Below are positions 43,201 to 64,000 of a stretch of DNA of 64,000 nt, piece by piece; within the stretch, counting starts at the first letter, position 1; the number at the start of each line of letters is the position of its first letter. Both the position numbers and the translations under genes were made by a program. The notes under the pieces are model-generated. The model saw only the letters and a program-made list of their open reading frames with translations, was not told where the DNA came from and made no database searches. The stretch lies in IMG/VR virus record IMGVR_UViG_3300027747_002638, one strand, 5' to 3'. The DNA is from a virus.

Positions 43201-43212
43201 TATTTAAGTAAA

Positions 43213-45850: not shown

Positions 45851-45918
45851 TGAACTTACTACAAATAATTACACCCCAATTGTATTAATTTTTAAATTAA
45901 TTTTAATAAAGTTTAAAC

Positions 45919-46840: not shown

Positions 46841-46849
46841 TTAATATTA

Positions 46850-51710: not shown

Positions 51711-52694
51711 CTAGCCTCTTCTGTTGCAATAATTAAAATTCTTATAAATTTTTTCTATTATATGCTCTTTAGATTCATCCTTTTCTTCTGTTTTTATCTC
51801 TTGACCTGCAGAAGTTTGTATATCTAAATTTTCTTTTTCTTGTATTTTTGGTTTTATTTCTATATCTTCTTTTTTATTAGATGTTATGTTATAAGCTAAT
51901 AAAAGTGAAACCGCTAATGGATCAAAAACACAAACAATTATAAGTATAAACCATTTAACTACTGTTTCTATTTTTACGTTAAAAGCTTCTGCTATAAATT
52001 TATAAGTTCCTATATCTGATTTTGTGATTTGTTGTTTTAAAGAAATAATAGAATTGTCAATACCATTAATTTCAGCTAATAAAGTATTATTAATATTATT
52101 AATTTTTTCTATATTAGATTCTAATGATGATATGCCAGTTTGCATACTATCTAAAGTTTTAGATTTTAATTCTACTGATTTTTTATCTACTATTTTTTCT
52201 TGAGTATCGCTACTAAATAAACCTCCAGATTTTGTAATTGTAGTTGTGGTAGATTGATCTAGAGCTTTTGTTAAATTTGATTCTTGGTTCTTTCTTGTGT
52301 CTGTTAAAGTCTTAATTCTTTCGTTATTTGAAACTATTTGAGTATTTAATGATTGTTTTTTATTCTCTAATAAAACTACTTGGGATTCTATACCATCTAT
52401 ATTGCTTTTAGTTGAGTAAAAGGCTTGACTTAAAAATCCAAATATACCTAAACTAGTAATTGCCATCAATACAATAATCGCCGCTAATAGATATGATCTA
52501 ATAATATTATTAATTTTTTGCCAATAACGATATAAAAAGCTAGTTGCCATTATTTTTCCAAACTCTAAGCTGCTTGCCATAATTATTGATGCTATAAAGC
52601 TACCAGAGAATAGTAAACCTATACCTTTCACAGAAAAGAAAGCCCCGCATCCTGCTAATAATAAAGCTGACAAGCCTAATAAGTATTTAAACAT
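51711..52694 (-). CDS. Membrane protein with periplasmic coiled coil
   Basis: Three N-terminal TM segments, coiled coil, fourth TM VFDPLAV. Confidence 0.7.
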   Translation of the reverse strand: MFKYLLGLSALLLAGCGAFFSVKGIGLLFSGSFIASIIMASSLEFGKIMATSFLYRYWQKINNIIRSYLLAAIIVLMAITSLGIFGFLSQAFYSTKSNIDGIESQVVLLENKKQSLNTQIVSNNERIKTLTDTRKNQESNLTKALDQSTTTTITKSGGLFSSDTQEKIVDKKSVELKSKTLDSMQTGISSLESNIEKINNINNTLLAEINGIDNSIISLKQQITKSDIGTYKFIAEAFNVKIETVVKWFILIIVCVFDPLAVSLLLAYNITSNKKEDIEIKPKIQEKENLDIQTSAGQEIKTEEKDESKEHIIEKIYKNFNYCNRRG

Positions 52695-52698
52695 AAGT

Positions 52699-52932
52699 TC
52701 AATTTTTTGATTTATAATTGCCACCTAATCCTAAAAAATTGGGCTCGCGCACAGAATATAAAGGTTTGGCCGTGGTAATTTTTGGTAAATTATTATCAAT
52801 GTATTGTATATTATTTTGGATTGGCTCATTTGGTTTGTTTTTGTTTGATTTTAAGATATTGGTCTGACTAATAAGGTAATATAAAGATCCTAATAATATT
52901 GTTAAAGCTAATAATTTGATATTGTGTTTCAT
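52699..52932 (-). CDS. Small membrane-anchored protein
   Basis: N-terminal TM; GTGTAA 10 nt upstream. Confidence 0.5.
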   Translation of the reverse strand: MKHNIKLLALTILLGSLYYLISQTNILKSNKNKPNEPIQNNIQYIDNNLPKITTAKPLYSVREPNFLGLGGNYKSKN

Positions 52933-53811: not shown

Positions 53812-54186
53812 TTTGTTTTGGTTGTATATAAAAAACACTTTATAACAAAAATAGCCCCGCGGATTTTTTTACTTCTAAGTATATTCATTTGTATTGATTT
53901 TTTATAGATTTAGAAAAAGGGGTAGGGGTATATATAGGAGTATAAATAAAGATAAGATAAAGTATAAGCTATTTATTGTATTTAAATTAGGTATAAATAA
54001 GTAACATATTAAAATAATGTGGAGATTGAAGATAGCCCCCTCCTCTCTCTTTTGAGTTTTAGAGCGAAGTAATTTTTTCAAAAATGGGGTAGCCCATAGG
54101 CGAACTCAAACCTAGAAACACAGGCTAGGGATCTATATAAAAAATAAAAAACACAGAAAAAATGGGGTGGGGGTTTAGCGCTTTCT

Positions 54187-54213
54187 CTAAGTCGTTGACT
54201 ATCAATGAAATTT
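54187..54213. repeat. Single 27-bp palindrome (half element)
   Basis: CTAAGTCGTTGA-CTA-TCAATGAAATTT. Confidence 0.8.
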
Positions 54214-54228
54214 AACTGAAGAAATATC

Positions 54229-54256
54229 TTGTGATAATCCTATTCTGTGATAGATT
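54229..54256 (+). promoter_or_regulatory. Early sigma70-type promoter, leaderless
   Basis: TTGTGA-16-(TG.)TAGATT-6-ATG. Confidence 0.75.
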
Positions 54257-54262
54257 ACCTAT

Positions 54263-54412
54263 ATGAAGAAATTAAGCAAATATGAACAACTGATCGCAAA
54301 CCTCAACAAGGCTAGCCAAGACCTTAAGGATGCCTCTACCAAGGCTATCGCTACTCTTGACGCTCACGCCAACAAGGTGGAAGCTATCCATCAGGAAGCG
54401 ATGACCAAATGA
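54263..54412 (+). CDS. Small coiled-coil protein (49 aa), paralogue of 55616..55804
   Basis: MKKLSKYEQLIANLNKASQDLK vs MKRKTKLEILLGNLDKASADLK. Confidence 0.7.
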   Translation: MKKLSKYEQLIANLNKASQDLKDASTKAIATLDAHANKVEAIHQEAMTK

Positions 54413-54492
54413 ATCAAATAGAAATCATCCTCACCCTTACCATCGTAACCATTCTTATCGGAATCTACGCTATGGTAACAGCTAAAAAATAA
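54409..54492 (+). CDS. 27-aa membrane peptide
   Basis: MNQIEIILTLTIVTILIGIYAMVTAKK; ATGA overlap. Confidence 0.5.
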   Translation: MNQIEIILTLTIVTILIGIYAMVTAKK

Positions 54493-54531
54493 CCCTTGAC
54501 GAAACATAAACAGAAAGGCAATATACAACCT

Positions 54532-54951
54532 ATGAAACAAAACCTCAAAATCAGTTACCAAACCTTCGGCGAAAACAATGCTTACCTTCTCGAAGGAAGT
54601 ATCAAACAGATCAATCACTTCTTCAATTCAATATATAATTGGGAAGGAACTAACGGCAAGTTGCACGATATGGGCAACGGCAAAGCGTTTTACTTCTACG
54701 CTCATCCAGATGATGTGATGAAAGCTCTTACTAAAGTTGCGTTGCATAGCTTGGTCAATAAGATTAACGCTAAGGGACGCAAGGGTGGACTGCTTGACCT
54801 TGCCAAGGCCAAAGCACAGAGCATCGTGGATGCTATGGGTCAGACTTGTTTCCTATGGGGTGCAAGTAGCTCCGAGGGATACAGCCTTGGAACTATCAGT
54901 GCAGAGAAACCCTCTGACTACTGCGGTGCAGTCAGCAACGGAAGGGACTAA
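54532..54951 (+). CDS. Early hypothetical protein, paralogue of 61817..62203
   Basis: Shared YNW.GTNG.L and SLGTISAEK; start moved to the ATG at 54532, after TTGACG…CAATAT. Confidence 0.7.
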   Translation: MKQNLKISYQTFGENNAYLLEGSIKQINHFFNSIYNWEGTNGKLHDMGNGKAFYFYAHPDDVMKALTKVALHSLVNKINAKGRKGGLLDLAKAKAQSIVDAMGQTCFLWGASSSEGYSLGTISAEKPSDYCGAVSNGRD

Positions 54952-54955
54952 TCCT

Positions 54956-55333
54956 ATGACAGCAGAACTATTCATCGTAGCATTAACAATCCTTGGCGAA
55001 GCTAGGGGTGAAACCTTTGAGGGTATGGCTGGCGTTGCTAGTGTTATACAAACACGCACCATAGAGCGTAAGCAAACGCCTAGCCAAGTGTGCCTGTCAC
55101 CTAAACAATTCAGCTTCTGGAATGGTGGAGTAAGTGAAGCTACCAAGAAGAAGCTACTGGCAACAGCACAAGGTAAGAACGCTCTATACCTTGCTGATCT
55201 AGTCGTCCATAAACAGATGCCAGACATCGTGAGGGGTGCAAACCATTACCACGCCATCAGCGTCGCTCCTAGATGGGCTAGAGATGCAAGGCTAGTGGCT
55301 ACAATACGCAACCACAAGTTTTATAAGTTGTAA
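54956..55333 (+). CDS. SleB-like cell wall hydrolase (Hydrolase_2)
   Basis: ALTILGEARGE…VASVI..R…KQFSFWN…GANHYHA…P.WA…H.FY; start moved to 54956. Confidence 0.85.
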   Translation: MTAELFIVALTILGEARGETFEGMAGVASVIQTRTIERKQTPSQVCLSPKQFSFWNGGVSEATKKKLLATAQGKNALYLADLVVHKQMPDIVRGANHYHAISVAPRWARDARLVATIRNHKFYKL

Positions 55334-55404
55334 GTAGCTGAATACCAACGACTTGCGAGCGCAGGGACGCACCTTATGTAAGTCCTTTATAATCAGATAC
55401 TTGC
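55330..55404 (+). repeat. 75-bp bipartite palindromic element, copy 1
   Basis: GTAAGTAGCTGA-ATA-CCAACGACTTGC / gagcGCAGGGacgcaccttat / GTAAGTCCTTTA-TAA-TCAGATACTTGC. Confidence 0.9.
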
Positions 55405-55414
55405 AAAGATTCTC

Positions 55415-55492
55415 GATCTTCTGACAAAACCTGAATGAACGCAAAAGATCAGGCCTGATCTTGCAACAAAACCTGATGGAACGCTAAAAATC
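55415..55492. repeat. Two 36-bp direct repeats (42-bp period) around a perfect 18-bp palindrome
   Basis: GATCTT..ACAAAACCTGA..GAACGC.AAA.ATC twice; AAGATCAGGCCTGATCTT at 55445-62. Confidence 0.8.
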
Positions 55493-55566
55493 TAAACCCC
55501 TAACCATTAACGACTTACAAAAGCGACCTCCCTGCAGCTGTAACTCGTTGATGGTGAACGAGATTT
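55492..55566 (-). repeat. 75-bp element, copy 2 (inverted)
   Basis: Spacer reverse complement agctGCAGGGaggtcgctttt; 27+21+27 geometry. Confidence 0.9.
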
Positions 55567-55581
55567 AAATGAAAAAATATC

Positions 55582-55609
55582 TTGCAAAATTTCTAAAATG
55601 TGATAAATT
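55582..55609 (+). promoter_or_regulatory. Early promoter, leaderless
   Basis: TTGCAA-16-(TG.)TAAATT-6-ATG. Confidence 0.75.
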
Positions 55610-55615
55610 AAGAGT

Positions 55616-55804
55616 ATGAAAAGAAAAACAAAATTAGAAATCCTCCTCGGAAATTTAGACAAGGCTTCGGCTGACCTCAAAAAAGCCGTTGAAGAATCCC
55701 AAAAAAGACTCGATGAAAGTTTCGCAAAATACGAACATAAAGTTGAAGTCGCTCATCATAACTCGATGATGGTCAACGAAAAACAAATTGAAGAAATAAT
55801 TTGA
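55616..55804 (+). CDS. Small coiled-coil protein
   Basis: 62 aa; its 3' end contains a half element (55758-55784). Confidence 0.7.
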   Translation: MKRKTKLEILLGNLDKASADLKKAVEESQKRLDESFAKYEHKVEVAHHNSMMVNEKQIEEII

Positions 55805-55828
55805 CTTTTGCAGGAATTGTGGTAAACT
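55801..55828 (+). promoter_or_regulatory. Early promoter with A-rich leader
   Basis: TTGACT-16-(TG.)TAAACT. Confidence 0.75.
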
Positions 55829-55878
55829 ATATACATAAGATAAAAGATAACAAATAACAAAGAAAGAAAAAAAATAAA

Positions 55879-56154
55879 ATGACTCATAGAATGATAAACT
55901 GGAATTTTCAACGAAAACAAATGCGTGAAAATATGCGAAAAAATATGAATGCTTCTGAAGAAGTAATCATAACTAACTCTAACAATACACCAACTTACTT
56001 TGGTAAAATATACCTTTACGAAGGAACTCTAGTAAAAGTTTCTTATAAAACTTCTGCAAATACTGCGGTTGTAACCTTCCTAGAAGGTAAAGATAAAGAT
56101 AAGGTTGGAACTATCAACCTTAATAACGCTAAACTAATAAAGGAAAATAAATAA
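55879..56154 (+). CDS. Early SH3-like small protein, paralogue of 56707..56925
   Basis: LVKV…LEG.DK.K..TI.L shared. Confidence 0.65.
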   Translation: MTHRMINWNFQRKQMRENMRKNMNASEEVIITNSNNTPTYFGKIYLYEGTLVKVSYKTSANTAVVTFLEGKDKDKVGTINLNNAKLIKENK

Positions 56155-56328
56155 ATGAATAACGATAATAAAAAACAATTAACTTCCCAAGAATGGGAAA
56201 TTCAACGCAAAGAAAAAAATCAAGCTCTTTGGGCTAATCGTAAAAAGCGATGGTCTGAATGGAAAAAGAATAATCCTGAAAAGGCTAAAGCTCACGCCTT
56301 ACTAAAGGCAAAACTTAATGGAAAATAA
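56155..56328 (+). CDS. Small basic protein (57 aa)
   Basis: Read by hand: MNNDNKKQLTSQEWEIQRKEK…WKKNNPEK. Confidence 0.6.
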   Translation: MNNDNKKQLTSQEWEIQRKEKNQALWANRKKRWSEWKKNNPEKAKAHALLKAKLNGK

Positions 56329-56332
56329 ATAA

Positions 56333-56530
56333 ATGAACATTCAACAATTCGAAGAACTCTTAAAGAATCACGATTGGACTTACCAAATGAGTGAAGACTC
56401 ATACTACTATCGTAGGGGTCAAAAACAACTTAAAGAAATTGAAGAAGCTATCGCCCAAGCTGGTGAATCAGAATGGGGCGAAGAATATCAAAACCTATAT
56501 AATCAATATCGTAACAAGTTTGGAGTTTGA
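56333..56530 (+). CDS. Conserved phage hypothetical protein (HDW.Y..S.D motif)
   Basis: LLKNHDWTYQMSEDSYYYRRG. Confidence 0.7.
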   Translation: MNIQQFEELLKNHDWTYQMSEDSYYYRRGQKQLKEIEEAIAQAGESEWGEEYQNLYNQYRNKFGV

Positions 56531-56544
56531 CAAAATTAGTTGAT

Positions 56545-56619
56545 GTAAGTTGTTGGATACCAATGACTTACGACGGCAGGGACCCTTGCGTTGCAAGTCG
56601 TTAATGATCAATGAAATTT
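56545..56619 (+). repeat. 75-bp element, copy 3
   Basis: GTAAGTTGTTGG-ATA-CCAATGACTTAC / gacgGCAGGGacccttgcgtt / GCAAGTCGTTAA-TGA-TCAATGAAATTT. Confidence 0.9.
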
Positions 56620-56634
56620 AAATGAAGATTTTTG

Positions 56635-56662
56635 TTGCGTTTTCTCTGAAATATGCTAAACT
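56635..56662 (+). promoter_or_regulatory. Early promoter with A-rich leader
   Basis: TTGCGT-16-(TG.)TAAACT. Confidence 0.7.
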
Positions 56663-56706
56663 ATACTTATAACAAGATAAGAAATAACAAAGAAAGAAAA
56701 AATAAA

Positions 56707-56925
56707 ATGATAACAATAAATAAAGAACTAACTACAGATGAAAATACTTTTCGATATGGTCACGAAAGACTACTCGTAAAGGTTTTCCCTTCTACAATCG
56801 GTTGGAAAACTATGACTGCAACTGCTGAAATCCTCGAAGGTGAGGACAAAGGTAAATGGACAACCATTTATCTTCGTAGCGGATTGTATAATGTCGATAC
56901 AGATTCTCTTGTCTGGTATCGCTAA
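56707..56925 (+). CDS. Early small protein, paralogue of 55879..56154
   Basis: Start moved to the ATG at 56707; same AAATAACAAAGAAAGAAAAAATAAAATG leader. Confidence 0.65.
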   Translation: MITINKELTTDENTFRYGHERLLVKVFPSTIGWKTMTATAEILEGEDKGKWTTIYLRSGLYNVDTDSLVWYR

Positions 56926-56948
56926 ATCGTTAATAATCAAAGAGAAAA
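56922..56948. repeat. Half element overlapping a stop codon
   Basis: CTAAATCGTTAA-TAA-TCAAAGAGAAAA. Confidence 0.6.
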
Positions 56949-56953
56949 AAAGT

Positions 56954-56981
56954 TTGACAAAATAAGAAAGTGTGATAGATT
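56954..56981 (+). promoter_or_regulatory. Early promoter, leaderless
   Basis: TTGACA-16-(TG.)TAGATT-6-ATG. Confidence 0.8.
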
Positions 56982-56987
56982 AAAGGT

Positions 56988-57389
56988 ATGACATACGAAA
57001 AAAGAAAACAAAAAGAAATAGCAACTCAACAAGCCAACAGAGCTGAAAAAGCTAGGCTCACAGCAGAAAAGGCTGAACTTTTCAAAAGTCTCAACATCCA
57101 AATTGGTGACTTCATCGAAATAACAACCTCGAAAGGTAGTGAAGTTTTGTTCGTGGAAGATTCTGCGAATACTTACGACACTTTGCCTTTCCTCAAAAAC
57201 ATTCTTTTCCTCTCATTCAGAGGAATCAATGGTGCTGGCATCGTTGGGATGACTTGTCTCCTCGATGTTGTGGAAGTTAAAAAAGTAAAAGGAAGCATCG
57301 CACTTCTACAAGAAGTTGAACAAGCGATGAAAGTTTCAAACCGAATCTTTCAAAGCTATAACGAAGCTGGAAGTTATAAAGGAGACTAA
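56988..57389 (+). CDS. Early hypothetical protein
   Basis: 133-aa ORF. Confidence 0.7.
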   Translation: MTYEKRKQKEIATQQANRAEKARLTAEKAELFKSLNIQIGDFIEITTSKGSEVLFVEDSANTYDTLPFLKNILFLSFRGINGAGIVGMTCLLDVVEVKKVKGSIALLQEVEQAMKVSNRIFQSYNEAGSYKGD

Positions 57390-57526
57390 TGAAAAAAATA
57401 CTTTTCAAAATAAATAAAAAAACTTTTCGTCTTGCTGTAAAAAATGGTGAGAAGAAAAACTTTTTGCGTGAAAGATTTTTTTACTACATCTCTGCGAGTT
57501 GTTTGAATCTTAGAGACCTCTTGTAA
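57389..57526 (+). CDS. Small basic protein (45 aa)
   Basis: TAATG overlap; stop codon lies inside element copy 4. Confidence 0.5.
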   Translation: MKKILFKINKKTFRLAVKNGEKKNFLRERFFYYISASCLNLRDLL

Positions 57527-57597
57527 ATAACTCACTATCAACGAGTTACGAGCGCAGGGAGGCCCCGCGCGCAAACCCTTGACTATCAACGACTTAC
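57523..57597 (+). repeat. 75-bp element, copy 4
   Basis: GTAAATAACTCA-CTA-TCAACGAGTTAC / gagcGCAGGGaggccccgcgc / GCAAACCCTTGA-CTA-TCAACGACTTAC. Confidence 0.9.
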
Positions 57598-57701
57598 ATA
57601 AGGCTAAACAGGACACATCATTTTAATGTTATGATTTCCTATTAAAATATTTCGTATTTAGTATTAGGCATTCTTCTATTTGATTTTTTATAAAATAAAA
57701 C

Positions 57702-57729
57702 TTGTGCTAAAAATAATCTGTGATACATT
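57702..57729 (+). promoter_or_regulatory. Early promoter, leaderless
   Basis: TTGTGC-16-(TG.)TACATT-6-ATG. Confidence 0.7.
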
Positions 57730-57735
57730 TAATTT

Positions 57736-57900
57736 ATGACAAACGAAATCACATCCCTAGCGACGGAAACCTGCGAGGAAGCCTATGTGGACGCTAATGC
57801 GTTCTTTGACTACATCAATTCCAATGATGTGGTTAACTCGATGCTCGATGCGTTGAGTGGGGTTTACGATTCGGTCGAAACTATTGTGGAGGTCAAATAA
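57736..57900 (+). CDS. Small acidic protein (54 aa)
   Basis: Read by hand; 11 D/E vs 1 K. Confidence 0.65.
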   Translation: MTNEITSLATETCEEAYVDANAFFDYINSNDVVNSMLDALSGVYDSVETIVEVK

Positions 57901-57901
57901 T

Positions 57902-58165
57902 ATGGACTACAAAGCCTCTCTCAAGGAGTGGATGAGTCAGCACATGCTGTCTCCGTTGGATGTGCGCGACATCCTTAACCAGATGCGCGAGGATGACCGC
58001 GCTATCAAATCCGAAACATCAGACGAGCCAAACGATTCTATGGATGGCGACTTCGACTCTGCTATGGCTTCTGCTGGCCACGGCACTGATGAGGATTACA
58101 ATGGTGGATGTTACCAGATGGAAGACTTTGGTTGGGCTGGTGACGAAAACCTCTGTGGAGAATAA
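57902..58165 (+). CDS. Acidic protein (87 aa)
   Basis: Start moved to the ATG at 57902 (GGAGG SD); 22 D/E vs 6 K/R; SAG.GTDEDY motif. Confidence 0.7.
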   Translation: MDYKASLKEWMSQHMLSPLDVRDILNQMREDDRAIKSETSDEPNDSMDGDFDSAMASAGHGTDEDYNGGCYQMEDFGWAGDENLCGE

Positions 58166-58168
58166 TAT

Positions 58169-58306
58169 ATGATTGATATATTCGATGACGAAAAAACCCT
58201 AAAAATTTGGGCAAAAAAAATGTTAGATGATCAAGCTATGGAGCGAGCTTTAGAAACTCAAGCAGAACTTGATTCTGACCATATGCGTGATATGGGAGAG
58301 TCTTAA
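58169..58306 (+). CDS. Small acidic protein (45 aa)
   Basis: GGAG SD; stop codon abuts element copy 5. Confidence 0.6.
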   Translation: MIDIFDDEKTLKIWAKKMLDDQAMERALETQAELDSDHMRDMGES

Positions 58307-58380
58307 TAAGTTGCTAATAGTCAACGACTTACGGCCGCAGGGACGCCGCCGATGTAAATCCTTGATAATCAAAGACTTAC
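58306..58380 (+). repeat. 75-bp element, copy 5 (at the convergence point of the two early arrays)
   Basis: ATAAGTTGCTAA-TAG-TCAACGACTTAC / ggccGCAGGGacgccgccgat / GTAAATCCTTGA-TAA-TCAAAGACTTAC. Confidence 0.9.
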
Positions 58381-58392
58381 ACCAGCAATTTT

Positions 58393-58587
58393 TTACATAG
58401 AGGCTCGCCAACCTTCAAAAACTTCGTCAATCTCTCTCTGCTTTTGCACAAAACTTTTGTTTGTATCGAGTGGAGGATTTTCATTATCACCCCACGGATA
58501 AAAACTTTCTAAATTTTCGTTTAATAGTTTTTCTATATTCATTTTGACATTTTGAATGTTAGAGTTAATCCTAATATCACAAGACAT
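58393..58587 (-). CDS. Hypothetical protein
   Basis: ORF; true start may be at 58542. Confidence 0.45.
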   Translation of the reverse strand: MSCDIRINSNIQNVKMNIEKLLNENLESFYPWGDNENPPLDTNKSFVQKQREIDEVFEGWRASM

Positions 58588-58610
58588 AAAAATATTTCCA
58601 TTTAGACATC

Positions 58611-59246
58611 TTAATGCTTTTTATAATCTATTGCAAACTCATTCTTATCCCAACACTTGCGACAATCACCGCACTTGTTCCCTTGTTTAGAAGATGGGCA
58701 GTTAAAGTTTCCTAGCTTGCTCGCACCGCTAACGCACAAGCCAAGGCGTTGTGCAATTCCTACGGGTGCGGGGCCATCCATCATAAGAGCAGACAAACGG
58801 ATGGTAAGATTACTAGGCACTTCTCCACCTTGTTCGATATAGGTTGAGACAAAAGCATATTCACGAGTTGGAAGCCAAAAAGAAATGTGAGGAAGATTCT
58901 TTGCAATCTTCACAATCTTTTCAATATGCCAAACACCTTGCAAGTCTCCTGAATCGTGCCACCTGAAATGTGGATTCTTAACTTTACCAATCAAATAAGT
59001 CATAGCGTCCACCCACAAATCGTTAGTAAGAGAAGCGAAACGCTTTTCCATAGCTTTCTGAACATTGGGGAAAACATAACGCCCTTTAAGAGCATAGCAA
59101 AAAGCACAAATGCTTCCTACAACATTCCGCATTTTTTGCCCGATAAGACAACGTTTTGCGGGCGTTGAGTAAGCATATCCAGGCATCTTCGAGGGTTTTG
59201 AGAGTGTGCCAACAATCTCTTCGGCTTGTTTTTTGTTTTTGAACAT
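58611..59246 (-). CDS. GP88-like (radical-SAM-related) phage protein
   Basis: SKMPG…C…ICAFCYA, FRWHDSGD, FWLPTRE, NLTIRLS, CP…CGDCRKCW. Confidence 0.75.
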   Translation of the reverse strand: MFKNKKQAEEIVGTLSKPSKMPGYAYSTPAKRCLIGQKMRNVVGSICAFCYALKGRYVFPNVQKAMEKRFASLTNDLWVDAMTYLIGKVKNPHFRWHDSGDLQGVWHIEKIVKIAKNLPHISFWLPTREYAFVSTYIEQGGEVPSNLTIRLSALMMDGPAPVGIAQRLGLCVSGASKLGNFNCPSSKQGNKCGDCRKCWDKNEFAIDYKKH

Positions 59247-59252
59247 AGAATT

Positions 59253-59280
59253 AGATTAACACTTTTTTTTCTTGTGACAA
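59253..59280 (-). promoter_or_regulatory. Early promoter, leaderless
   Basis: TTGTCA-16-(TG.)TAATCT-6-ATG. Confidence 0.75.
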
Positions 59281-59295
59281 GTTTTTTTTACAATT

Positions 59296-59370
59296 AAATC
59301 TCGTTGACTATCAATGACTTACGACGGCAGGGACCCCGCTTGCGTAAGTAGTTAATACTTAAGCAGTTAC
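59296..59370 (+). repeat. 75-bp element, copy 6
   Basis: AAATCTCGTTGA-CTA-TCAATGACTTAC / gacgGCAGGGaccccgcttgc / GTAAGTAGTTAA-TAC-TTAAGCAGTTAC; overlaps the ardC stop. Confidence 0.9.
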
Positions 59371-60195
59371 AGCTTCTTCTTCTTGAATTTCTTCGCTTTC
59401 TTTTCTATCAACAAAAGCGTCAAATCTTTTTTGTGCTTTGCTAGAAGCTGAGATGATAAAGTTTGTATCTTTTTTTAATACTTCTAACCAATTGGAAAGA
59501 TAGCTGGCAGAATTGTTAAAACATTTTTCAGAATCAATTCCGCAGAAGTTAAGACAAAGACTAGCAAAAATCTCAGCGGTCAATTCTTCTTTGCTATAAT
59601 TCTGAGAACCAAAACCATTCTTAACATTATCGCCTGTGCTTTTATGCATAGCGTGGCCGATCTCATGAAATGCTGTGGAGTAATACTCCTCAACGCTGTT
59701 AAAGTTTTCTTTTGGGGGTAAATCAATCTTATGATCTTCTGGATAGTAACAGGCACGACTGCCACCATACTTAATCTGAATCACGCACTTGTTGATTAAC
59801 TTTTCTGCTTCTTCTACTGGTGAGAAATCCAACTTCTGGACTTCTGGCTGTTTCCACTTCATACCTTCAATATCACTCAAACCAAAAACCTTGTAGAATC
59901 TCATAAGAGGAAAGCCACCTGATTCATCATCTTTCTTTTTTAATAGTTTGTAATAAACTACCATGTGAGACTTAGCGCCTTTTTTGATTTTTCCACCTAG
60001 CTCTTTAATCTGATTAAATGTAAAAAAGAAATCATCAGAAGCTACCATGCGAAGTAAGAATTGATTAATGCCTCGATAACCTTTTTTGGAAACTCCGTTG
60101 CAAAGATCAAAAACTTTCCAAGGCTTCTGCCAAGGAATGACTCCTTTGTTGAGGGCTTCGATGAACTTTTCTGTGATAATTTCGTTTACTTTCAT
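59359..60195 (-). CDS. ardC: ArdC-family antirestriction protein (ssDNA-binding + zincin-like domain)
   Basis: PWQKPW, YRGIN, TFNQ…GG.IKKG, YYST.FHEIGH, YSKEELTAE, SASY..NWL.VL. Confidence 0.9.
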   Translation of the reverse strand: MKVNEIITEKFIEALNKGVIPWQKPWKVFDLCNGVSKKGYRGINQFLLRMVASDDFFFTFNQIKELGGKIKKGAKSHMVVYYKLLKKKDDESGGFPLMRFYKVFGLSDIEGMKWKQPEVQKLDFSPVEEAEKLINKCVIQIKYGGSRACYYPEDHKIDLPPKENFNSVEEYYSTAFHEIGHAMHKSTGDNVKNGFGSQNYSKEELTAEIFASLCLNFCGIDSEKCFNNSASYLSNWLEVLKKDTNFIISASSKAQKRFDAFVDRKESEEIQEEEAVTA

Positions 60196-60201
60196 AGCTT
60201 A

Positions 60202-60229
60202 AATATATCAGAAATTTGTTTTTTGTCTA
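60202..60229 (-). promoter_or_regulatory. Early promoter, leaderless
   Basis: TAGACA-16-(TG.)TATATT-6-ATG. Confidence 0.75.
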
Positions 60230-60234
60230 CATTT

Positions 60235-60309
60235 AAATTTCATTGAGTATCAACGACTTATAGCACAAGAGCCCCTGCTTATGCAAGTGTTTGACTATCA
60301 AAGAGATAA
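60235..60309 (-). repeat. 75-bp element, copy 7 (inverted)
   Basis: Spacer reverse complement ataaGCAGGGgctcttgtgct; 27+21+27 geometry. Confidence 0.9.
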
Positions 60310-60347
60310 AAATATTGATTTAAAACCAATATAGTGTAATATAAGTT

Positions 60348-60524
60348 ATGAAGGTTTCTGGTTTACTTGAATCGTCTGCTCTATATAAAAAGTTTGTTGA
60401 AGAGCGAAATGAAATCCTAAAGCACAAATGGCTCGAAAGCGAAAAAGCTGGCCACGATATTGGTTTTGAAAAAGCTCTGTTAGATTGGGTTTTCAATCAC
60501 AGAGAAAAATGGCGTAATAAATAA
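60348..60524 (+). CDS. DUF4032-like small protein (58 aa); not in the ORF track
   Basis: ERNEILKHKWLESEKAGHDIGFEKALLDW; GTGTAA 8 nt upstream. Confidence 0.75.
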   Translation: MKVSGLLESSALYKKFVEERNEILKHKWLESEKAGHDIGFEKALLDWVFNHREKWRNK

Positions 60525-60657
60525 TTCTTCGACCCTCTACGCTCATGATTTCGTAAAGGAATATCCTGCTCCTCTACCGCCTCTGACTCTGGGCGTTGGC
60601 AGGTTCATCCTCTTATGGGAGTTAGTCAGACTCGCCAAGAGAAGTATTGGCGTTCCG

Positions 60658-60858
60658 TTATATATAATCAATGTTGCCATTGAAAACTTTCCAGAACTGC
60701 AACCTTTCGGTCAACCTTCTCTGATATCGAAGAACTAAAACTATCTTAACATACTTTTGTTTATGTGCAATAAAAAAGGCGAGGTTTTTACGCCTCGCCC
60801 TTTCTATAATGTCTTTCTGTAGTTTAAACTGGCGAAAGACCACCAGCGATTCGATCAT
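60658..60858 (-). CDS. Small basic hypothetical protein
   Basis: 66-aa ORF overlapping the upstream gene. Confidence 0.4.
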   Translation of the reverse strand: MIESLVVFRQFKLQKDIIERARRKNLAFFIAHKQKYVKIVLVLRYQRRLTERLQFWKVFNGNIDYI

Positions 60859-61090
60859 AGCGGAATTGCTTCACGCCAGAATCCATACGACCAGAAAAGC
60901 AGAAGCTAGTGAATAGCTTGTTCCCTGCCTTGCTGATGGTATGAGAAGAAGGCTTGCTGATGATGTAAGTATAGACATCATTCTTGCCGTAGGGTTTGTA
61001 TTCGATTAAATACCTTTGCCCCAAGAGGAAAAGGACGAAGTGTTTCAGATATGAGGTTGCGTATATGATTGCGTTTTTGATTTTGTTCAT
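60824..61090 (-). CDS. Early hypothetical protein (WYL-like F..DRI ending)
   Basis: 88 aa; leaderless promoter TTGTGA-16-TATATT-6-ATG at 61097-61124. Confidence 0.65.
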   Translation of the reverse strand: MNKIKNAIIYATSYLKHFVLFLLGQRYLIEYKPYGKNDVYTYIISKPSSHTISKAGNKLFTSFCFSGRMDSGVKQFRYDRIAGGLSPV

Positions 61091-61139
61091 AGATTAAATA
61101 TACCATACCTTTGTTTTTTCACAAGAAAAATCTTAAATT

Positions 61140-61214
61140 AAATCTCGTTGATGGTCAACGACTTACGCGCGCAGGGACCCGCCTTTTGTAACTACTTAAT
61201 AATCAAATACTTAT
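61140..61214 (+). repeat. 75-bp element, copy 8
   Basis: AAATCTCGTTGA-TGG-TCAACGACTTAC / gcgcGCAGGGacccgcctttt / GTAACTACTTAA-TAA-TCAAATACTTAT. Confidence 0.9.
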
Positions 61215-61220
61215 AATAGT

Positions 61221-61382
61221 TTAATCTTCTTGTTCTTTCCAATTAGGATGAGCTTTAACCCATTTATGCCAAACGATTTCCAAGCCAGCAAGATGCTTTT
61301 CTATTTCAGCAATAAGCCTTGGATCTTCATCTCGAAGAACCCTCTTCTCAAGTATTTTGCTTATTCTATTTTCGTTTTTCAT
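61221..61382 (-). CDS. Small hypothetical protein (53 aa)
   Basis: Read by hand: MKNENRISKILEKRVLRDEDPRLIAEIEKHL…; stop is 6 nt from element copy 8. Confidence 0.5.
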   Translation of the reverse strand: MKNENRISKILEKRVLRDEDPRLIAEIEKHLAGLEIVWHKWVKAHPNWKEQED

Positions 61383-61655
61383 ATCAGTATATATTACAAT
61401 TATTTGTAAAATATTTCAACTATTTATTATATACTGTTAGATATTTAGGAAAATCTATTTTAGATGTGTAATTAGTATTTTGATTAACTCTTGTACTCCA
61501 CCCCAGCAAATCGTTAGCATTAAACATAAAATAAAAAACTCTACGCCAAATTTCTCAAAAACATTTCTCACATAAATAGAATACATTCTATTTTTTATTT
61601 AGAGAAAATATTTCGTAATGTCGCTCTCTTTAGTGCAAGTTTTCATAAAAATTCT

Positions 61656-61728
61656 CGCTCTCGGCAGGATTCAAACCTGCGATCTATTGATTAGAAATCA
61701 ATTGCATTATTCGCTATGCTACGAGAGC
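61656..61728 (-). tRNA. tRNA-Arg(UCU), no encoded CCA
   Basis: GCTCTCG/CGAGAGC acceptor; ATTGA-TTTCTAA-TCAAT; GCAGG-TTTGAAT-CCTGC. Confidence 0.85.
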
Positions 61729-61737
61729 GATAAAGTT

Positions 61738-61810
61738 TCGCCTAGGTCAGACTCGAACTGACACTTGAACGATTTTAAGTCGTTTGCCTCTGCCATTGGG
61801 CTACTAGGCG
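61738..61810 (-). tRNA. tRNA-Leu(UAA) with short variable loop
   Basis: CGCCTAG/CTAGGCG; AACGA-CTTAAAA-TCGTT; variable region CAAGT; GTCAG-TTCGAGT-CTGAC; A73. Confidence 0.9.
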
Positions 61811-61816
61811 GATTGT

Positions 61817-62203
61817 TTAGCTGTCAGTATCTAACTTTTCAGCAGAAATAGTGCCGAGAGAATAGATGTCCTCGACTTGTGCTGTGCGAACAAAATGTTC
61901 GTTTGGAATATTATCAATAGTGTTCTTCACTCGATTCATAGCAACTGCTTTTAATCCACCTTTAGCACCACGGAACTTCTTTCCAAGTTTATCGCTCAAA
62001 CTACTCATAATATACTTAAACATCACTCGCTCCAACTTTTCGAGAGTAATCCAAAAATAAGCAAAGTCATTACTCATCCATTGAAGCTCTCCGTTTGTTC
62101 CACCCCAATTATAGACTCGATTGTGGAACTGCTGAATCTCGTCCTTGTTACCTTTAATTCCAATAACCCAATGTGCTCCGAGGTTTTGTTTCATTAATTT
62201 CAT
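61817..62203 (-). CDS. Early hypothetical protein, paralogue of 54532..54951
   Basis: YNWGGTNGEL, SLGTISAEK; promoter TTGACA-16-TAAACT at 62211-62238. Confidence 0.7.
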   Translation of the reverse strand: MKLMKQNLGAHWVIGIKGNKDEIQQFHNRVYNWGGTNGELQWMSNDFAYFWITLEKLERVMFKYIMSSLSDKLGKKFRGAKGGLKAVAMNRVKNTIDNIPNEHFVRTAQVEDIYSLGTISAEKLDTDS

Positions 62204-62331
62204 AGTTTATAGTTTATCCTGTTCTTGTTTTTTGTCAATACTTTTATTGTTAAAATACCAATCTATATCTTCTTGAGTTGTTTCTGTATGCTTACTATAA
62301 GAGTTGAGCATCCAATCCGCACAAGGAGAAG

Positions 62332-62403
62332 TGGGCAAGGCTGGACTCGAACCAGCACTAGGAGAATTATGAGTTCTCTGTTTCACCTTTAAACTACTTG
62401 CCC
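62332..62403 (-). tRNA. tRNA with CAU anticodon (elongator Met or Ile2)
   Basis: GGGCAAG/CTTGCCC; GAGAA-CTCATAA-TTCTC; GCTGG-TTCGAGT-CCAGC. Confidence 0.9.
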
Positions 62404-62595
62404 CACTTTAGCAGGAAAGCTCGAAGGTTTTGGCACTTGAAAGAACTCTACTGCAAAAGCCTTGGCGTAATTTTCCAAGTCTTTCAGAGAGCAAGTCTCT
62501 TTCGGTGTGCACATGCGGATTGAGGTGTTTAGGATGATGGCTCGGTCTTTACCGAACACATTCACCACATAGAATGGAATTGTTTTGTTTGTCAT
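62389..62595 (-). CDS. Early hypothetical protein; 3' end overlaps the tRNA
   Basis: Start moved to 62595; promoter TTGACT-16-TATATT-6-ATG at 62602-62629. Confidence 0.6.
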   Translation of the reverse strand: MTNKTIPFYVVNVFGKDRAIILNTSIRMCTPKETCSLKDLENYAKAFAVEFFQVPKPSSFPAKVGQVV

Positions 62596-62662
62596 AGGTT
62601 TAATATACAACAATTAGAGAAATAGTCAATAAAAATAATTCGTTGAATGATAAGGCTTTACA

Positions 62663-62753
62663 TACTAGGGGAAGGATTCGAACCTTCATTACGCTCAAAT
62701 CTAGAGCTTCACGAGTATAAGTCGTGGGTCTTAACCAGTTAGACGACCCTAGC
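62663..62753 (-). tRNA. tRNA-Ile(UAU) with long variable arm
   Basis: GCTAGGG/CCCTAGT; CACGA-CTTATAC-TCGTG; 22-nt variable region with GCTC/GAGC stem; GAAGG-TTCGAAT-CCTTC. Confidence 0.85.
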
Positions 62754-62792
62754 AATCAACACCAAGCCGTAGCTCAATGTCAGCCTCCGAAG

Positions 62793-62951
62793 TTATCCAC
62801 CGATTTTCTTGATGGTAACTTTCGTTCCATCAGGCCAAGAGCGGATGACCTTACGCCAAAACTCCGCTTCTTGCTCGGCATCTTCCATCTTCGAGTGCAT
62901 ATCTTCACTCACACGGACTCCATCTCGCAAAACGATATACTTAAGATTCAT
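62793..62951 (-). CDS. Small hypothetical protein (52 aa)
   Basis: Read by hand: MNLKYIVLRDGVRVSED…AEFWRKVIRSWPDGTKV. Confidence 0.6.
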   Translation of the reverse strand: MNLKYIVLRDGVRVSEDMHSKMEDAEQEAEFWRKVIRSWPDGTKVTIKKIGG

Positions 62952-63177
62952 TTTCTACCTCCAATGCTACTGCGTTGTCAAACATTGAGCCACCATCTAC
63001 TGCATCACAAATAACGATGTCATTACTGCCATCATCACCAGCATATACAGCTCGTAGTTTTCTTGTTTGACTATGTTCTTTTTTTGTCCATTGACTCTCT
63101 GGAACGCCGAGGACTTGCAGAGCCTCAACTCTCTCTGGTGAAAGTGCTTCACCGCTTACTGCACATTTATATGTCAT
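62941..63177 (-). CDS. Hypothetical protein, degenerate TraR/DksA-finger-like N-terminus
   Basis: YKCAVSGEALSPERVEAL. Confidence 0.5.
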   Translation of the reverse strand: MTYKCAVSGEALSPERVEALQVLGVPESQWTKKEHSQTRKLRAVYAGDDGSNDIVICDAVDGGSMFDNAVALEVENES

Positions 63178-63184
63178 AATCGGA

Positions 63185-63598
63185 TTATACCGCTAATTGT
63201 TCTGGTGTCAAGTGAATTTCTGCTGGGGGTTCTGGAAGAACATTATTCTTCCGAGGACGGCCACGGCCACGCTTCTCACCATTAGGCATAGTTGCAGTTG
63301 CAACATAAGCTGATAGTTTTTCTTTTAGTTGGATGAATCGTTTGTCTGCATCTTCACGATCAATACAAGTGAATGCCCAATCGCCCCATTGACTATCGCT
63401 AGGATACATTTCAGCAGGAGGCATCTTCACACCTGCAATTTCATATCCATTGTGACGCTTAATAGCAATCACTTCATAGTTAAAAGCTTCGCTGTCATCT
63501 TCATCGAGTTTCTTTTTATAGATAGCAACATCTCCATCACGACCAACCATCGTGAACTTAAATCCTCGACTGGTAAATGTTTCTTCAAGAGTTTTCAA
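63185..63598 (-). CDS. AT-hook-containing protein
   Basis: KRGRGRPRK near the C-terminus. Confidence 0.65.
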   Translation of the reverse strand: MKTLEETFTSRGFKFTMVGRDGDVAIYKKKLDEDDSEAFNYEVIAIKRHNGYEIAGVKMPPAEMYPSDSQWGDWAFTCIDREDADKRFIQLKEKLSAYVATATMPNGEKRGRGRPRKNNVLPEPPAEIHLTPEQLAV

Positions 63599-63740
63599 TT
63601 TTTACTCCTTTAGGAAGCCACGCTTCCAAAGTCAGACCTTCTCCAATATATCCGACTTGAGTTTCAGTTTTAGTTTTAGGGTCAGTTGCGTATAGTGCGT
63701 AGCCACCCTCCTTTAGTTTTTTGGCTTTAGTGATTTCCAT
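63585..63740 (-). CDS. Small hypothetical protein (51 aa)
   Basis: Leaderless promoter TTGAAT-16-TAAGAT-6-ATG at 63747-63774. Confidence 0.55.
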   Translation of the reverse strand: MEITKAKKLKEGGYALYATDPKTKTETQVGYIGEGLTLEAWLPKGVKIENS

Positions 63741-63765
63741 TAGATAATCTTACTATACTTTTAGA

Positions 63766-64000
63766 TTAATTCAAGACAAAAATATCACGATTAATTACTC
63801 CAACCCATTTAGCTTTATATACAGGCTCTAGGGTATCAGAGTAAACAAAGCTATTAAACTTATAAGGATTATATGTTACTTTTCTTTCAGTTTGATCTAC
63901 TGGCCATCCATCGTCTGGTGTGCCACACACAAAAGCGTGAACATTCTTTCTTTGTTCTTTTAATACTCTGTTTCTACCAGCTTGACTCACTCTAAACTCA
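63766..64000 (-). CDS. Conserved phage hypothetical protein (5' partial)
   Basis: VSQAGRNRVLKEQRKNVHAFV.G…VTYNPYK. Confidence 0.65.
   Translation of the reverse strand, partial: EFRVSQAGRNRVLKEQRKNVHAFVCGTPDDGWPVDQTERKVTYNPYKFNSFVYSDTLEPVYKAKWVGVINRDIFVLN

Follow-up and report, generated by a model that had tools for sequence, protein, structure and literature searches.

The early, anti-defence region of an uncultured freshwater phage, an island of small genes, is punctuated by an element of two palindromes whose sequence drifts among copies while its dimensions stay rigid (loop 3, spacing 48, spacer 21). The best explanation, which we hold at a probability of roughly 0.5, is that the palindromes would be duplex docking sites for a host bending protein of the IHF/HU type, paired as a nucleoprotein boundary near early promoters.

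Architecture and fixed geometry

In the window (the whole 64-kb stretch of DNA analysed) there are eight elements of 75 bp (27+21+27) and four single palindromes, all within 54.2-62.7 kb. Each element has the anatomy 12+3+12 / 21 / 12+3+12, with GCAGGG (the G-box) at spacer positions 5-10 in 8/8 copies. The initial annotation had described this geometry for copies at 55330, 55492, 56545, 57523, 58306, 59296, 60235 and 61140, and we find all eight at those starts; its single palindromes at 54187, 55758, 56922 and 62635 are likewise real, and a promoter follows each. Its division into six forward and two reverse copies holds in that 55492 and 60235 score as reverse, but is partly a scoring matter because three spacers (56545, 57523, 60235) are quasi-symmetric. 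The features, with predicted promoters, are as follows.

54187..54213, + strand: single palindrome, left edge of the array; promoter after a 15-bp gap (-35 54229-54234, -10 54251-54256, leaderless ATG 54263)
54956-55333: SleB-like hydrolase gene, stop codon within the first arm of element 55330
55330..55404, + strand: 75-bp element; G-box adjoins left palindrome; no promoter on its flanks
55405..55491, + strand: 87-bp module of two ~36-nt direct repeats, inverted ends containing GATC; enclosed by the inverted element pair 55330/55492
55492..55566, - strand: 75-bp element; G-box adjoins right, promoter-proximal palindrome; promoter after a 15-bp gap (-35 55582-55587, -10 55604-55609, ATG 55616)
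55758..55784, + strand: single palindrome within the 3' end of ORF 55616-55804; promoter after a 16-bp gap (55801-55828), serving the gene at 55879
56545..56619, + strand: 75-bp element; quasi-symmetric spacer, G-box on both strands; right palindrome promoter-proximal; promoter after a 15-bp gap (-35 56635-56640, -10 56657-56662); true start of the downstream gene probably 56707
56922..56948, + strand: single palindrome; 5-bp gap, promoter 56954-56981, leaderless ATG 56988
57523..57597, + strand: 75-bp element; quasi-symmetric spacer, G-box on both strands; first arm holds the stop codon of ORF 57389-57526
58306..58380, + strand: 75-bp element between convergent 3' ends (58169-58306, + strand; 58393-58587, - strand); promoter on neither side
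59296..59370, + strand: 75-bp element; left palindrome and G-box serve a leftward promoter (-35 59280-59275, -10 59258-59253, ATG 59246) of a gp88-family gene
59359-60195: ArdC/zincin gene, stop codon overlapped by the right arm of element 59296
60235..60309, - strand: 75-bp element, quasi-symmetric spacer, G-box on both strands; between divergent promoters, each at a 5-bp gap (leftward 60229-60202, ATG 60195; rightward -35 60315-60320, -10 60337-60342, ATG 60348)
61140..61214, + strand: 75-bp element; left palindrome and G-box serve leftward promoter 61124-61097, ATG 61090; right palindrome just downstream of the 3' end of ORF 61221-61382 (- strand)
62635..62661, - strand: degenerate single palindrome; 5-bp gap, leftward promoter 62629-62602, leaderless ATG 62595

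A weight matrix built from the eight copies gave no further match of 15 bits or more in the whole 64 kb, in keeping with the earlier view that the element is confined to the early region and missing from the late genes. The half-site TCAACGACTTAC, with up to two mismatches, occurs 24 times in the window (19 within 54187-62646 and five outside), compared with 3.6 on average and at most 8 in shuffled sequence. The array had been described correctly as far as the window reaches, but it runs past the window end, as seen in the close relative G001 (124.7-136.4 kb).

The constancy of length first noted within the window extends to relatives. Across 17 loci, and with the geometry not assumed, the loop was 3 nt in 186 palindrome matches (0-12 for each other loop length), neighbouring palindromes lay 48 bp apart in 86/88 close pairs, and the inner-arm spacer was 21 bp in 58/59. 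An identical layout, free of indels, is seen in 62 distinct copies drawn from over 20 viral contigs of relatives, and their MAFFT alignment contains zero gaps. The right half of the spacer is unconserved among copies. A sister clade, B (G006), whose terminase is 40% identical and whose island likewise lies before phoH and terminase, keeps 27+21+27 with a different spacer.

Sites on duplex DNA

The palindromes show no selection for a hairpin, and so are most likely protein sites on duplex DNA. Arm cells pair in 71.6% of cases among the 62 distinct copies, versus 70.8% in shuffles; pairs changed on both sides number 11, versus 11.7 in shuffles; and Watson-Crick counts match what independence predicts, for each of the four possible arm pairings and for the spacer. 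This lack of compensatory variation, with the rigid length and the helical phasing to promoters (below), supports the double-stranded protein-binding architecture that the initial annotation had proposed.

We think a hairpin role for the palindromes, in RNA or in single-stranded DNA, very unlikely, be it as factor-independent terminator, stabiliser of mRNA 3' ends, REP/BIME-type RNase III site or N4-type hairpin promoter. Such roles would suit the placement of palindromes directly after stop codons, often with the TAA inside the first arm, and the finding that no window element has a canonical terminator beside it, the sole one (60778-60799) lying between convergent genes where an element is missing. 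Some copies do out-fold their shuffles (z down to -5.7), but others do not (z up to +0.5). Only 8.4-8.8 of 12 pairs form on average, 45/62 copies have a mismatch at one central pair (columns 56/68) of the second palindrome, and the U-run is missing. In clade B the element is not itself the terminator, since a separate canonical one precedes each copy. Searches found no Rfam match and no Y1 transposase; one for a T7-type RNA polymerase was without match, its control likewise giving no signal, and the 2083-aa ORF codes for a fibre-like protein rather than a virion polymerase.

Promoter register

The palindromes sit 5, 15 or 26 bp from the -35 of sigma-70-type promoters with an extended -10, which are predicted to give leaderless mRNAs. 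The gap is 15 bp in 28 cases, 5 bp in nine and 26 bp in two, with 5 of 44 off-phase, a regularity that could partly be due to common descent of promoter cassettes. The clade B gap, at 88-90 bp, falls in the same 10.5-bp series. Of the 30 elements with a detected flanking promoter, 28 have the G-box beside the promoter-proximal palindrome, so that element direction reports the promoter side. Among the three functions originally suggested, the cooperative operator fits best, in the form of a promoter-linked operator or architectural site. Since elements 58306 and 55330 have no promoter on either flank, promoter activation cannot be the whole function.

Candidate binder

The half-site, TCAA-N4-TTA, fits the published IHF consensus core, WATCAA-N4-TTR (PMC1874591). 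Invariant columns A18 A19 / T24 T25 and the mirror partners A3 and T10 are consensus positions of WATCAANNNNTTR (T9 and A4, at mirror positions, are conserved in part only), and 9 bp separate the T9-T10 step from the A18-A19 step, the same distance as between IHF's two proline kinks. The island contains seven strict consensus matches, every one inside a palindrome, and an A/T tract resembling the 5' half of a canonical IHF site takes the place of the promoter-side arm. The initial annotation had not recognised the element, a statement refined by this match of the half-site to the IHF consensus. Against IHF, the strict consensus is found in only 7 of the ~20 window palindromes, and four bases that are free in it are conserved here (Y-G-A-S), even across unrelated phages; near-perfect palindromes suit a sequence-specific homodimer better than IHF's typically asymmetric, degenerate sites. 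We know of no precedent for IHF pairs at a 48-bp spacing (4.6 turns).

Pfam searches of G001 (100% complete) and the other complete or near-complete relatives found no HU/IHF, HTH_3 (Cro-type HTH), tyrosine or serine recombinase, or Y1 transposase; such searches would miss a small or novel phage-encoded binder. The earlier statement that the window encodes no recombinase or cognate regulator thus extends to relatives' whole genomes, and these absences make a host architectural protein of the IHF/HU type the leading, if unproven, candidate. DNA-binding families among the ~24 island ORFs tested came to one weak AT-hook motif. The closest ligase relatives give no more than a hint of an alphaproteobacterial host.

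We judge it unlikely that the palindromes instead serve as operators for a dimeric regulator, encoded by the phage and belonging to an unrecognised family. Such a protein would shut off or time early promoters and stop read-through from unit to unit, in the manner of the stoperators of cluster A mycobacteriophages. The near-perfect 12-3-12 symmetry, with 10/12 half-site positions conserved including bases that IHF ignores, would suit such a protein, as would the placement of sites upstream of promoters as well as at the 3' ends of genes, the clade-specific spacer motif (as if co-evolving with a phage factor), and the lack of known function for most island genes. However, searches of four relatives' genomes found no member of the HTH_3 or HU families, and for sigma region 4 no match exceeded the Pfam cut-off (one sub-threshold hit, in G004). 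Clades A and B have just one island gene family in common (L5 gp82-like). A 274-kb phage with no detectable homologue of this terminase bears the same palindrome 28 times at other spacings (25, 38 bp), yet none of the 10 Pfam-checked ORFs among the 11 in common with G001 is a recognised regulator that binds DNA sequence-specifically. For a site in helical phase, a centre near -53 or -63 is the usual geometry of an activator, not a repressor, and early promoters fire before phage proteins exist.

Cassette boundaries

Where relatives differ by the gain or loss of a cassette, elements form its bounds. The initial annotation had suggested looking for breakpoints there: homology ends fall in elements in 22% of cases versus 9.9% at random (~2-fold enriched) and peak at the spacer centre, element positions 36-40, in counts from non-independent pairwise comparisons. 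In 14 loci, inverted element pairs enclose the same direct-repeat module, 84-87 bp long. Several relatives have two inverted elements and this module at the position of 57523. Single elements resemble one element's left half fused, at the spacer centre, to the right half of a second; 57523, set against the inverted pair in locus L037, is an example.

These boundaries, the break peak, the seemingly fused halves and the constant insert would suit a site-specific recombination or mobile-cassette site, with the GC core as crossover and the palindromes as sites for a recombinase or accessory protein, moving early cassettes in an integron-like manner or by nested insertion. IHF sites around a core also recall lambda attP, in which IHF sites flank a core. 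We nevertheless regard this as highly improbable. The breakpoints speak for that part of the earlier proposal, but complete and near-complete relatives lack tyrosine and serine recombinases and Y1 transposase. The 21-bp spacer far exceeds known crossover regions, its right half is unconserved, and it differs wholly between clades; promoter phasing and the G-box rule would be left unexplained; and a phage RecA-like gene with short repeats would suffice for the indels seen.

The direct-repeat modules bear on a further reading, in which the array serves DNA entry, replication or packaging, either as loading sites on first-injected DNA or as an origin formed by the direct-repeat/GATC module with flanking bend sites. 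In both clades the island adjoins the phoH-terminase block, a place that could be a packaged end, and the repeats between bend-site pairs are iteron-like with GATC. This is extremely improbable given at least 10 dispersed copies tied to individual promoters, records without terminal repeats, and a direct-repeat module at only one or two elements.

Comparison with known systems

The closest known analogue is the PeSL (promoter-early stem-loop) cassette of T4-type phages, a G/C-rich terminator stem-loop with a sigma-70-type early promoter (PMC2839356, PMC4122927). The analogy, drawn in the initial annotation, is apt: both are short conserved intergenic units with a palindrome just before a sigma-70-type early promoter and start codon, both recur through a hyperplastic region of small accessory genes, and both occur at the borders of insertions, deletions and replacements that distinguish close relatives. 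Here, however, the palindrome is a sequence-conserved 27-bp site for which pairing is unsupported, with helical phasing to the -35, a rigid pair 48 bp apart, an oriented G-box and predicted leaderless mRNAs. The phage is not recognisably T4-like, its terminase being only ~25% identical to those of Bacillus and Clostridium phages.

Two further families, the BIME/RIP elements of enterobacteria, in which REP palindromes come with an IHF-binding linker, and the Correia elements of Neisseria, lie on chromosomes and form hairpins. IHF is found in their linker, and REP is mobilised by a Y1 transposase. Like them, our element is composite and extragenic, with two imperfect palindromes and a defined linker, putatively IHF-associated, intergenic and able to carry promoter parts. 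In contrast, its IHF-like motifs are the palindromes themselves, pairing signal and Y1 transposase are absent, and no host-genome copies were found except on one 1.3-kb contig in a MAG, probably mis-binned phage DNA.

IHF sites at phage early promoters share the WATCAA-N4-TTR core and two AA/TT steps 9 bp apart. Lambda PL, which IHF stimulates together with a UP element lying at a distance (Giladi et al. 1998, as cited in PMC1784095), is one such case. Also in common are an A/T tract in the other half-site and a position, on one face of the helix, upstream of a sigma-70 promoter. The present putative sites differ as symmetric double-consensus palindromes with extra conserved bases, in fixed 48-bp pairs about every kilobase and also at gene 3' ends. 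Stoperators, 13-bp asymmetric sites oriented with transcription genome-wide, bind a known monomeric immunity repressor and are proposed to act at promoters and as blocks between genes (PMC9283540, PMC6550527). They too repeat one protein site many times within short stretches between genes, whereas ours are palindromic, paired and confined to one island, and a repressor was not found.

Proposed model

We propose that each 27-bp palindrome would dock a dimeric DNA-binding protein on duplex DNA, likeliest a host IHF/HU-type bender already present at DNA entry. With the GCAGGG box 4 bp beyond it, the palindrome would form the upstream part of a strong sigma-70-type early promoter, in the order G-box, palindrome, A/T-rich tract, -35, 16-bp spacer ending TGn, -10, 6 nt and leaderless ATG, with palindrome and polymerase on one helix face. 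The 75-bp element, as two bend sites exactly 48 bp apart, may set a rigid nucleoprotein boundary where one small transcription unit meets the next; the adjacent promoter would be shaped or activated by it, and insulated from its neighbour. As the same ~75 bp returns about every kilobase, the repeats may also serve as short homologies for the loss, gain and swap of cassettes, like PeSLs in T4-type phages.

The early element and its geometry

The early, anti-defence island at 54.2-62.7 kb of the window carries eight copies of a 75-bp element and four single palindromes. The coordinates and anatomy that the initial annotation gave for the eight copies were confirmed by direct reading of 54-64 kb, by a repeat finder and by a weight matrix. 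Each element consists of two 12+3+12 palindromes separated by a 21-bp G+C-rich spacer, in which GCAGGG (the G-box) occupies positions 5-10.

Repeat features of the island (for elements and palindromes, start positions)
54187, single palindrome
55330, forward, 75-bp element
55405-55491, insert between an inverted element pair: two ~36-nt direct repeats, 42 bp apart, with GATC-bearing inverted ends (GATCTT/AAGATC)
55492, reverse, 75-bp element
55758, single palindrome
56545, forward, 75-bp element
56922, single palindrome
57523, forward, 75-bp element
58306, forward, 75-bp element
59296, forward, 75-bp element
60235, reverse, 75-bp element
60778-60799, intrinsic terminator, the only good one in the island, outside any element
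61140, forward, 75-bp element
62635, single palindrome

Confinement of the element to the early region also held: the weight matrix built from the eight copies found no further match in the 64 kb, and, allowing at most two mismatches, the half-site TCAACGACTTAC is present 19 times in 54187-62646 and five times in the rest of the window, where 3.6 occurrences overall are expected. The first 54 kb encodes terminase, virion and fibre proteins. G+C passes from ~0.30 to ~0.38 at 54 kb, and the island beyond holds small ORFs, a SleB-like hydrolase, an L5 gp88-family protein, an ArdC/zincin anti-restriction-type protein and four tRNAs. In window 54000-64000 GATC is about 2-fold depleted, with 17 sites against 35 expected; the late region, with 166 against 152 expected, shows no depletion.

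In IMG/VR, a pattern scan located the element on more than 20 viral contigs. These supplied 86 distinct 75-mers, 62 of which differ from one another at more than eight positions. The close relative G001, a 171,916-bp record judged complete, has elements only at 124.7-136.4 kb; its aligned blocks of at least 400 bp are 76-96% identical to the window. Relative to G001, the terminase/portal block at window 38689-44729 is inverted with respect to both flanks, and smaller inversions lie at 45137-46860.

The fixed geometry claimed for the window copies was re-tested without presupposing the layout, and it extended to the whole set: the loop is 3 nt in 186 palindrome hits, the palindrome-to-palindrome distance is 48 bp in 86 of 88 close pairs, and the inner arms lie 21 bp apart in 58 of 59. 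A MAFFT alignment of the 62 copies is gapless, with invariant columns A3, T10, A18, A19, T24, T25, G35, A51, A52, T58, A66 and T73. Next to element 57523, on its right (window 57598-57660), stands another conserved non-coding stretch, ~20 nt around CATTTTAATGTTATG; it is found beside elements also in the inner segments of two related viral loci, L035 and L043.

The palindromes are symmetric by consensus only

Palindromic arms could act as hairpins, in RNA or in single-stranded DNA. On the 62-copy alignment a two-hairpin structure pairs in 71.6% of cells, against 70.8% with shuffled partners, and both partners have changed in 11 pairs (11.7 in shuffles), so compensatory variation is absent. Watson-Crick counts equal the independence expectation for each palindrome, for the inner-arm and outer-arm pairings and for the spacer, whose self-complementarity is not above expectation. 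Strong coupling is seen only between neighbouring columns, where it distinguishes two variants of the arm. Folding energies vary between copies (z from -5.7 to +0.5), and no known RNA family in Rfam matched the element. Since pairing is at chance level, the palindromes are symmetric by consensus only, which favours recognition as duplex DNA and argues against terminators, RNase III sites, REP-like hairpins, attC-like sites and N4-type hairpin promoters.

Several of these readings can be judged on other grounds as well. A terminator scan weakly calls one arm-loop-arm, at element 61140, as an intrinsic terminator; the G+C-rich stem with U-run that defines such terminators was not found, and no U-run follows the palindromes. 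The terminator at 60778-60799 separates convergent genes without a 75-bp element, unlike the convergent pair at 58306. For hairpin promoters of the N4 or crAss type, used by a virion polymerase, the pairing signal is absent; a 2083-aa ORF has BppL_N repeats and weak, sub-threshold BNR and beta-propeller matches, which mark it as a fibre or baseplate protein, not a virion polymerase. Membership of the REP/BIME repeats is opposed by the lack of a pairing signal, of a Y1 (RAYT) transposase (PF01797) in the relatives searched, and of spread in host chromosomes, with no true copies in 185,579 species genomes except on one contig that is probably mis-binned phage DNA. A coding role is hinted at by the length, 25 codons with one frame often open, but that frame contains TAG in many copies, and the conservation pattern is simply that of a mirrored half-site.

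Elements and single palindromes adjoin early promoters

Many palindromes are followed by a promoter of constant form: a TTGnnA -35, a 16-bp spacer ending in TGn, a -10 of TAnAtT, 6 nt and then ATG. An A/T-rich tract links arms reading ...GAAATTT or ...GAGATTT to the -35. A consensus scan also calls several of these sites. Palindrome-linked promoters number 10 in the window (six flanking elements, four behind single palindromes) and 44 across loci. With ATG 6 nt past the -10, the mRNAs would be leaderless or nearly so. Starts 5-7 nt beyond the -10 and without a Shine-Dalgarno sequence are found at 54263, 55616, 56988, 59246(-), 60195(-), 60348, 61090(-) and 62595(-), while the genes at 55879 and 56707 have A-rich leaders of ~45 nt, likewise without a Shine-Dalgarno.

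The gap from palindrome edge to -35, over 17 loci, is 5 bp in nine cases, 15 bp in 28 and 26 bp in two, with five off-phase; at the gaps of 5, 15 and 26 bp the centre of the palindrome falls near -53, -63 or -74 and keeps to the same helical face. The G-box, either GCAGGG or GCAAGGG, stands 4 bp from a palindrome. It had been proposed to give the element a direction, and it does adjoin the promoter-proximal palindrome in 28 of the 30 elements with a detected flanking promoter; some spacers are nonetheless symmetric (nnnn-GCAGGG-n-CCCTGC-nnnn), namely those of elements with promoters on both sides and some others. Promoter-free elements also exist, for example 58306 between convergent genes, so promoter support is not the sole role of the element.

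Arm 2 followed by GGGAG resembles a T7 promoter. The spacing differs by 3 nt, and PF00940 had no match in G001 or in two other relatives (G002 and G003), but control genomes were also unmatched, so this negative carries little weight.

Cassette content changes at elements

When each locus is coded as a string of gene families and elements, order is conserved and whole cassettes between elements are present or absent. The ArdC cassette, between elements 59296 and 60235 of the window, is absent from the related locus L002, where one element joins the neighbours. The single element 57523 corresponds to two inverted elements with an 84-bp insert in L037, L034, L045 and L002; in the reverse case, the window pair 55330/55492 corresponds to a single element in L037. 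The single elements in these cases resemble the left half of one copy and the right half of the other, joined near the spacer centre. The initial annotation had suggested checking whether breakpoints fall in the 21-bp core of the element. When relatives are compared by BLAST, 22% of homology ends fall within elements, where random placement gives 9.9% (at most 13.5%), and they are most frequent at element positions 36-40, although these counts are not of independent events.

Such a pattern could come from a site-specific recombination site or an integron attC. Tyrosine and serine recombinases (PF00589 and PF00239) are absent from G001-G003, and where such sites have a short crossover core between inverted binding sites the spacer here is 21 bp, half of it unconserved. 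G001 encodes a RecA-like protein. Recombination between short repeats has been proposed for the promoter-early stem-loop (PeSL) cassettes of T4-type phages (PMC2839356, PMC4122927), and since a site-specific recombinase was not found, recombination between short repeats is the economical reading here.

The analogy to PeSLs drawn in the initial annotation stands in function and fails at the stem-loop and terminator. As in a PeSL, the repeated unit carries a sigma-70-like early promoter, and cassette content differs at element boundaries, as at the indel and replacement boundaries of hyperplastic regions. The stem-loop that terminates the upstream unit has no counterpart: there is no compensatory variation and no U-run, and the sister clade B has a separate terminator.

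Inverted element pairs lie 159-162 bp apart, start to start, and the direct-repeat insert between them recurs in 14 loci; it looks iteron-like.

The layout outlasts the genes around it

A deeper search, in which only the best-conserved bases (those resembling an IHF site, see below) and the geometry were fixed, returned further contigs. The clade B genome G006 (120 kb, 93% complete) shares 49 ORFs with G001, and its terminase and that of the window are 40% identical. Its terminase homologue lies in a 1481-aa open frame (G006:C1:44027-48421) and is matched in two pieces, which suggests an intein-like insertion. The island has the same position, directly ahead of the phoH and terminase block, and G006 has 14 palindrome pairs at exactly 48 bp, with a different spacer motif. 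Island genes are essentially not shared with clade A, except for one L5 gp82-family gene, whose family has no assigned function. Along transcription, each G006 unit runs gene, canonical terminator, element, conserved 88-90-bp stretch, promoter and near-leaderless ATG. With a separate canonical terminator in every unit, the element is clearly not the terminator there, and 89 bp fits the helical series of 5, 15 and 26. The 27+21+27 layout is also retained, with A/T-rich spacers, in other AT-rich contigs; the length of the spacer is thus more important than its sequence.

The same palindrome occurs in G004, a complete 274-kb phage with no detectable homologue of the window terminase and only 11 ORFs in common with G001. 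Of the ten checked in Pfam, one is an ORF of unknown function and the rest are repair, ligase, phoH and similar genes; no recognised regulator is among them. G004 has 28 copies between 22 and 112 kb, in tandem at 25 or 38 bp, not 48, with no adjacent sigma-70-type promoters by the criteria applied. Use of the palindrome by unrelated phages suggests either a host factor that they share or a small regulator of high mobility.

Neither the island nor one element matched GenBank phages. A host repeat was sought in 185,579 species genomes, which gave five chance hits and one true element, on a 1.3-kb contig in a Verrucomicrobia MAG that is probably mis-binned phage DNA.

A candidate binder

The half-site is TCAA-N4-TTA, often preceded by WA, and corresponds to the IHF consensus WATCAANNNNTTR. 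Against the WATCAA-N4-TTR core, the 62 copies show little or no variation in the TCAA and TT columns, and the WA positions agree in only part of them. The best-conserved columns of the element are the IHF consensus positions, and all seven strict consensus matches in the island lie within palindromes. IHF has two proline intercalation sites 9 bp apart, and its consensus begins near the site centre (PMC1874591). The palindrome shares both features: its T9-T10 step lies 9 bp from its A18-A19 step (T10, A18 and A19 invariant, T9 being T in 44 of 62), and the consensus begins near its centre. Promoter-proximal arms are replaced by AAATTT or AAATCT with an A/T-rich flank, which may correspond to the optional 5' A-tract element of IHF sites, and the other arms carry a second consensus instead. 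Two caveats apply to the IHF reading: the palindromes conserve the four bases that are free in the consensus (Y-G-A-S), and they are unusually symmetric. IHF acting with upstream DNA at lambda PL offers a precedent (Giladi et al. 1998, as cited in PMC1784095).

The lack of an encoded cognate regulator, first remarked for the window, extends to G001 and other relatives: six-frame family searches there were negative for HU/IHF, HTH_3, tyrosine and serine recombinases and Y1 transposase. Sigma-70 region 4 had no match above the Pfam cut-off in the relatives and one sub-threshold hit in G004. The island proteins tested matched no DNA-binding family except for one weak AT-hook motif. A protein encoded beside the island (51711-52724, minus strand) recurs in G001, the unrelated G004 and the related locus L065; considered as a candidate cognate binder, it is a membrane/coiled-coil protein with no sign of DNA binding. 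The stoperators of mycobacteriophages, which pair an immunity repressor with a 13-bp asymmetric site oriented with transcription, differ in that the sites here are symmetric and an HTH_3 repressor was not found. With phage-encoded candidates not found, a host protein present at injection is the simplest candidate. The host may be alphaproteobacterial, although the closeness of the G001 ligase to those of phages of Alphaproteobacteria is only a hint.

Discussion

That the element is a protein site in duplex DNA, coupled to promoters, we regard as well founded and quite probable. That the binder is IHF-like is a more tentative proposal, to which we give slightly less than an even chance. Taken as a whole (probability about 0.5), our reading is that the element is a rigid pair of duplex-DNA sites, probably bound by an IHF/HU-type host protein, which would serve as the upstream architecture of early sigma-70 promoters and as the boundary between small transcription units, and would double as a recombination hot spot.

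A bolder reading, which we think unlikely, is that the twin-palindrome unit acts as a nucleoprotein insulator of a kind not described before. The element would take the form of a fixed Z-shaped joint, made by two protein-induced U-turns exactly 48 bp apart, and would split the first-expressed phage DNA into independent promoter, topological and recombination domains; the unit has been conserved since the split of clades with 40%-identical terminases, its palindrome being used also by unrelated freshwater phages. Alternatively, and within the same low estimate, the binder could be a new phage or host family, with the palindrome as the mark of its regulon.

It is unusual for non-coding architecture to be retained over greater distances than the neighbouring genes. 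In this case the 27+21+27 layout outlasts near-total replacement of the island genes, with only one gene family common to the clades. The rigid site pair at early promoters offers one compact, testable model that would cover three matters: a lytic phage building very strong, independent early promoters from host parts, its keeping neighbouring units from interfering, and the ease with which the same boundaries let the anti-defence gene region be reshuffled. In practice, the palindrome can serve as a search key for the early and anti-defence islands of uncultured phages and, if the binder is IHF, would help to narrow the host range of a large set of freshwater phages without a cultured member.
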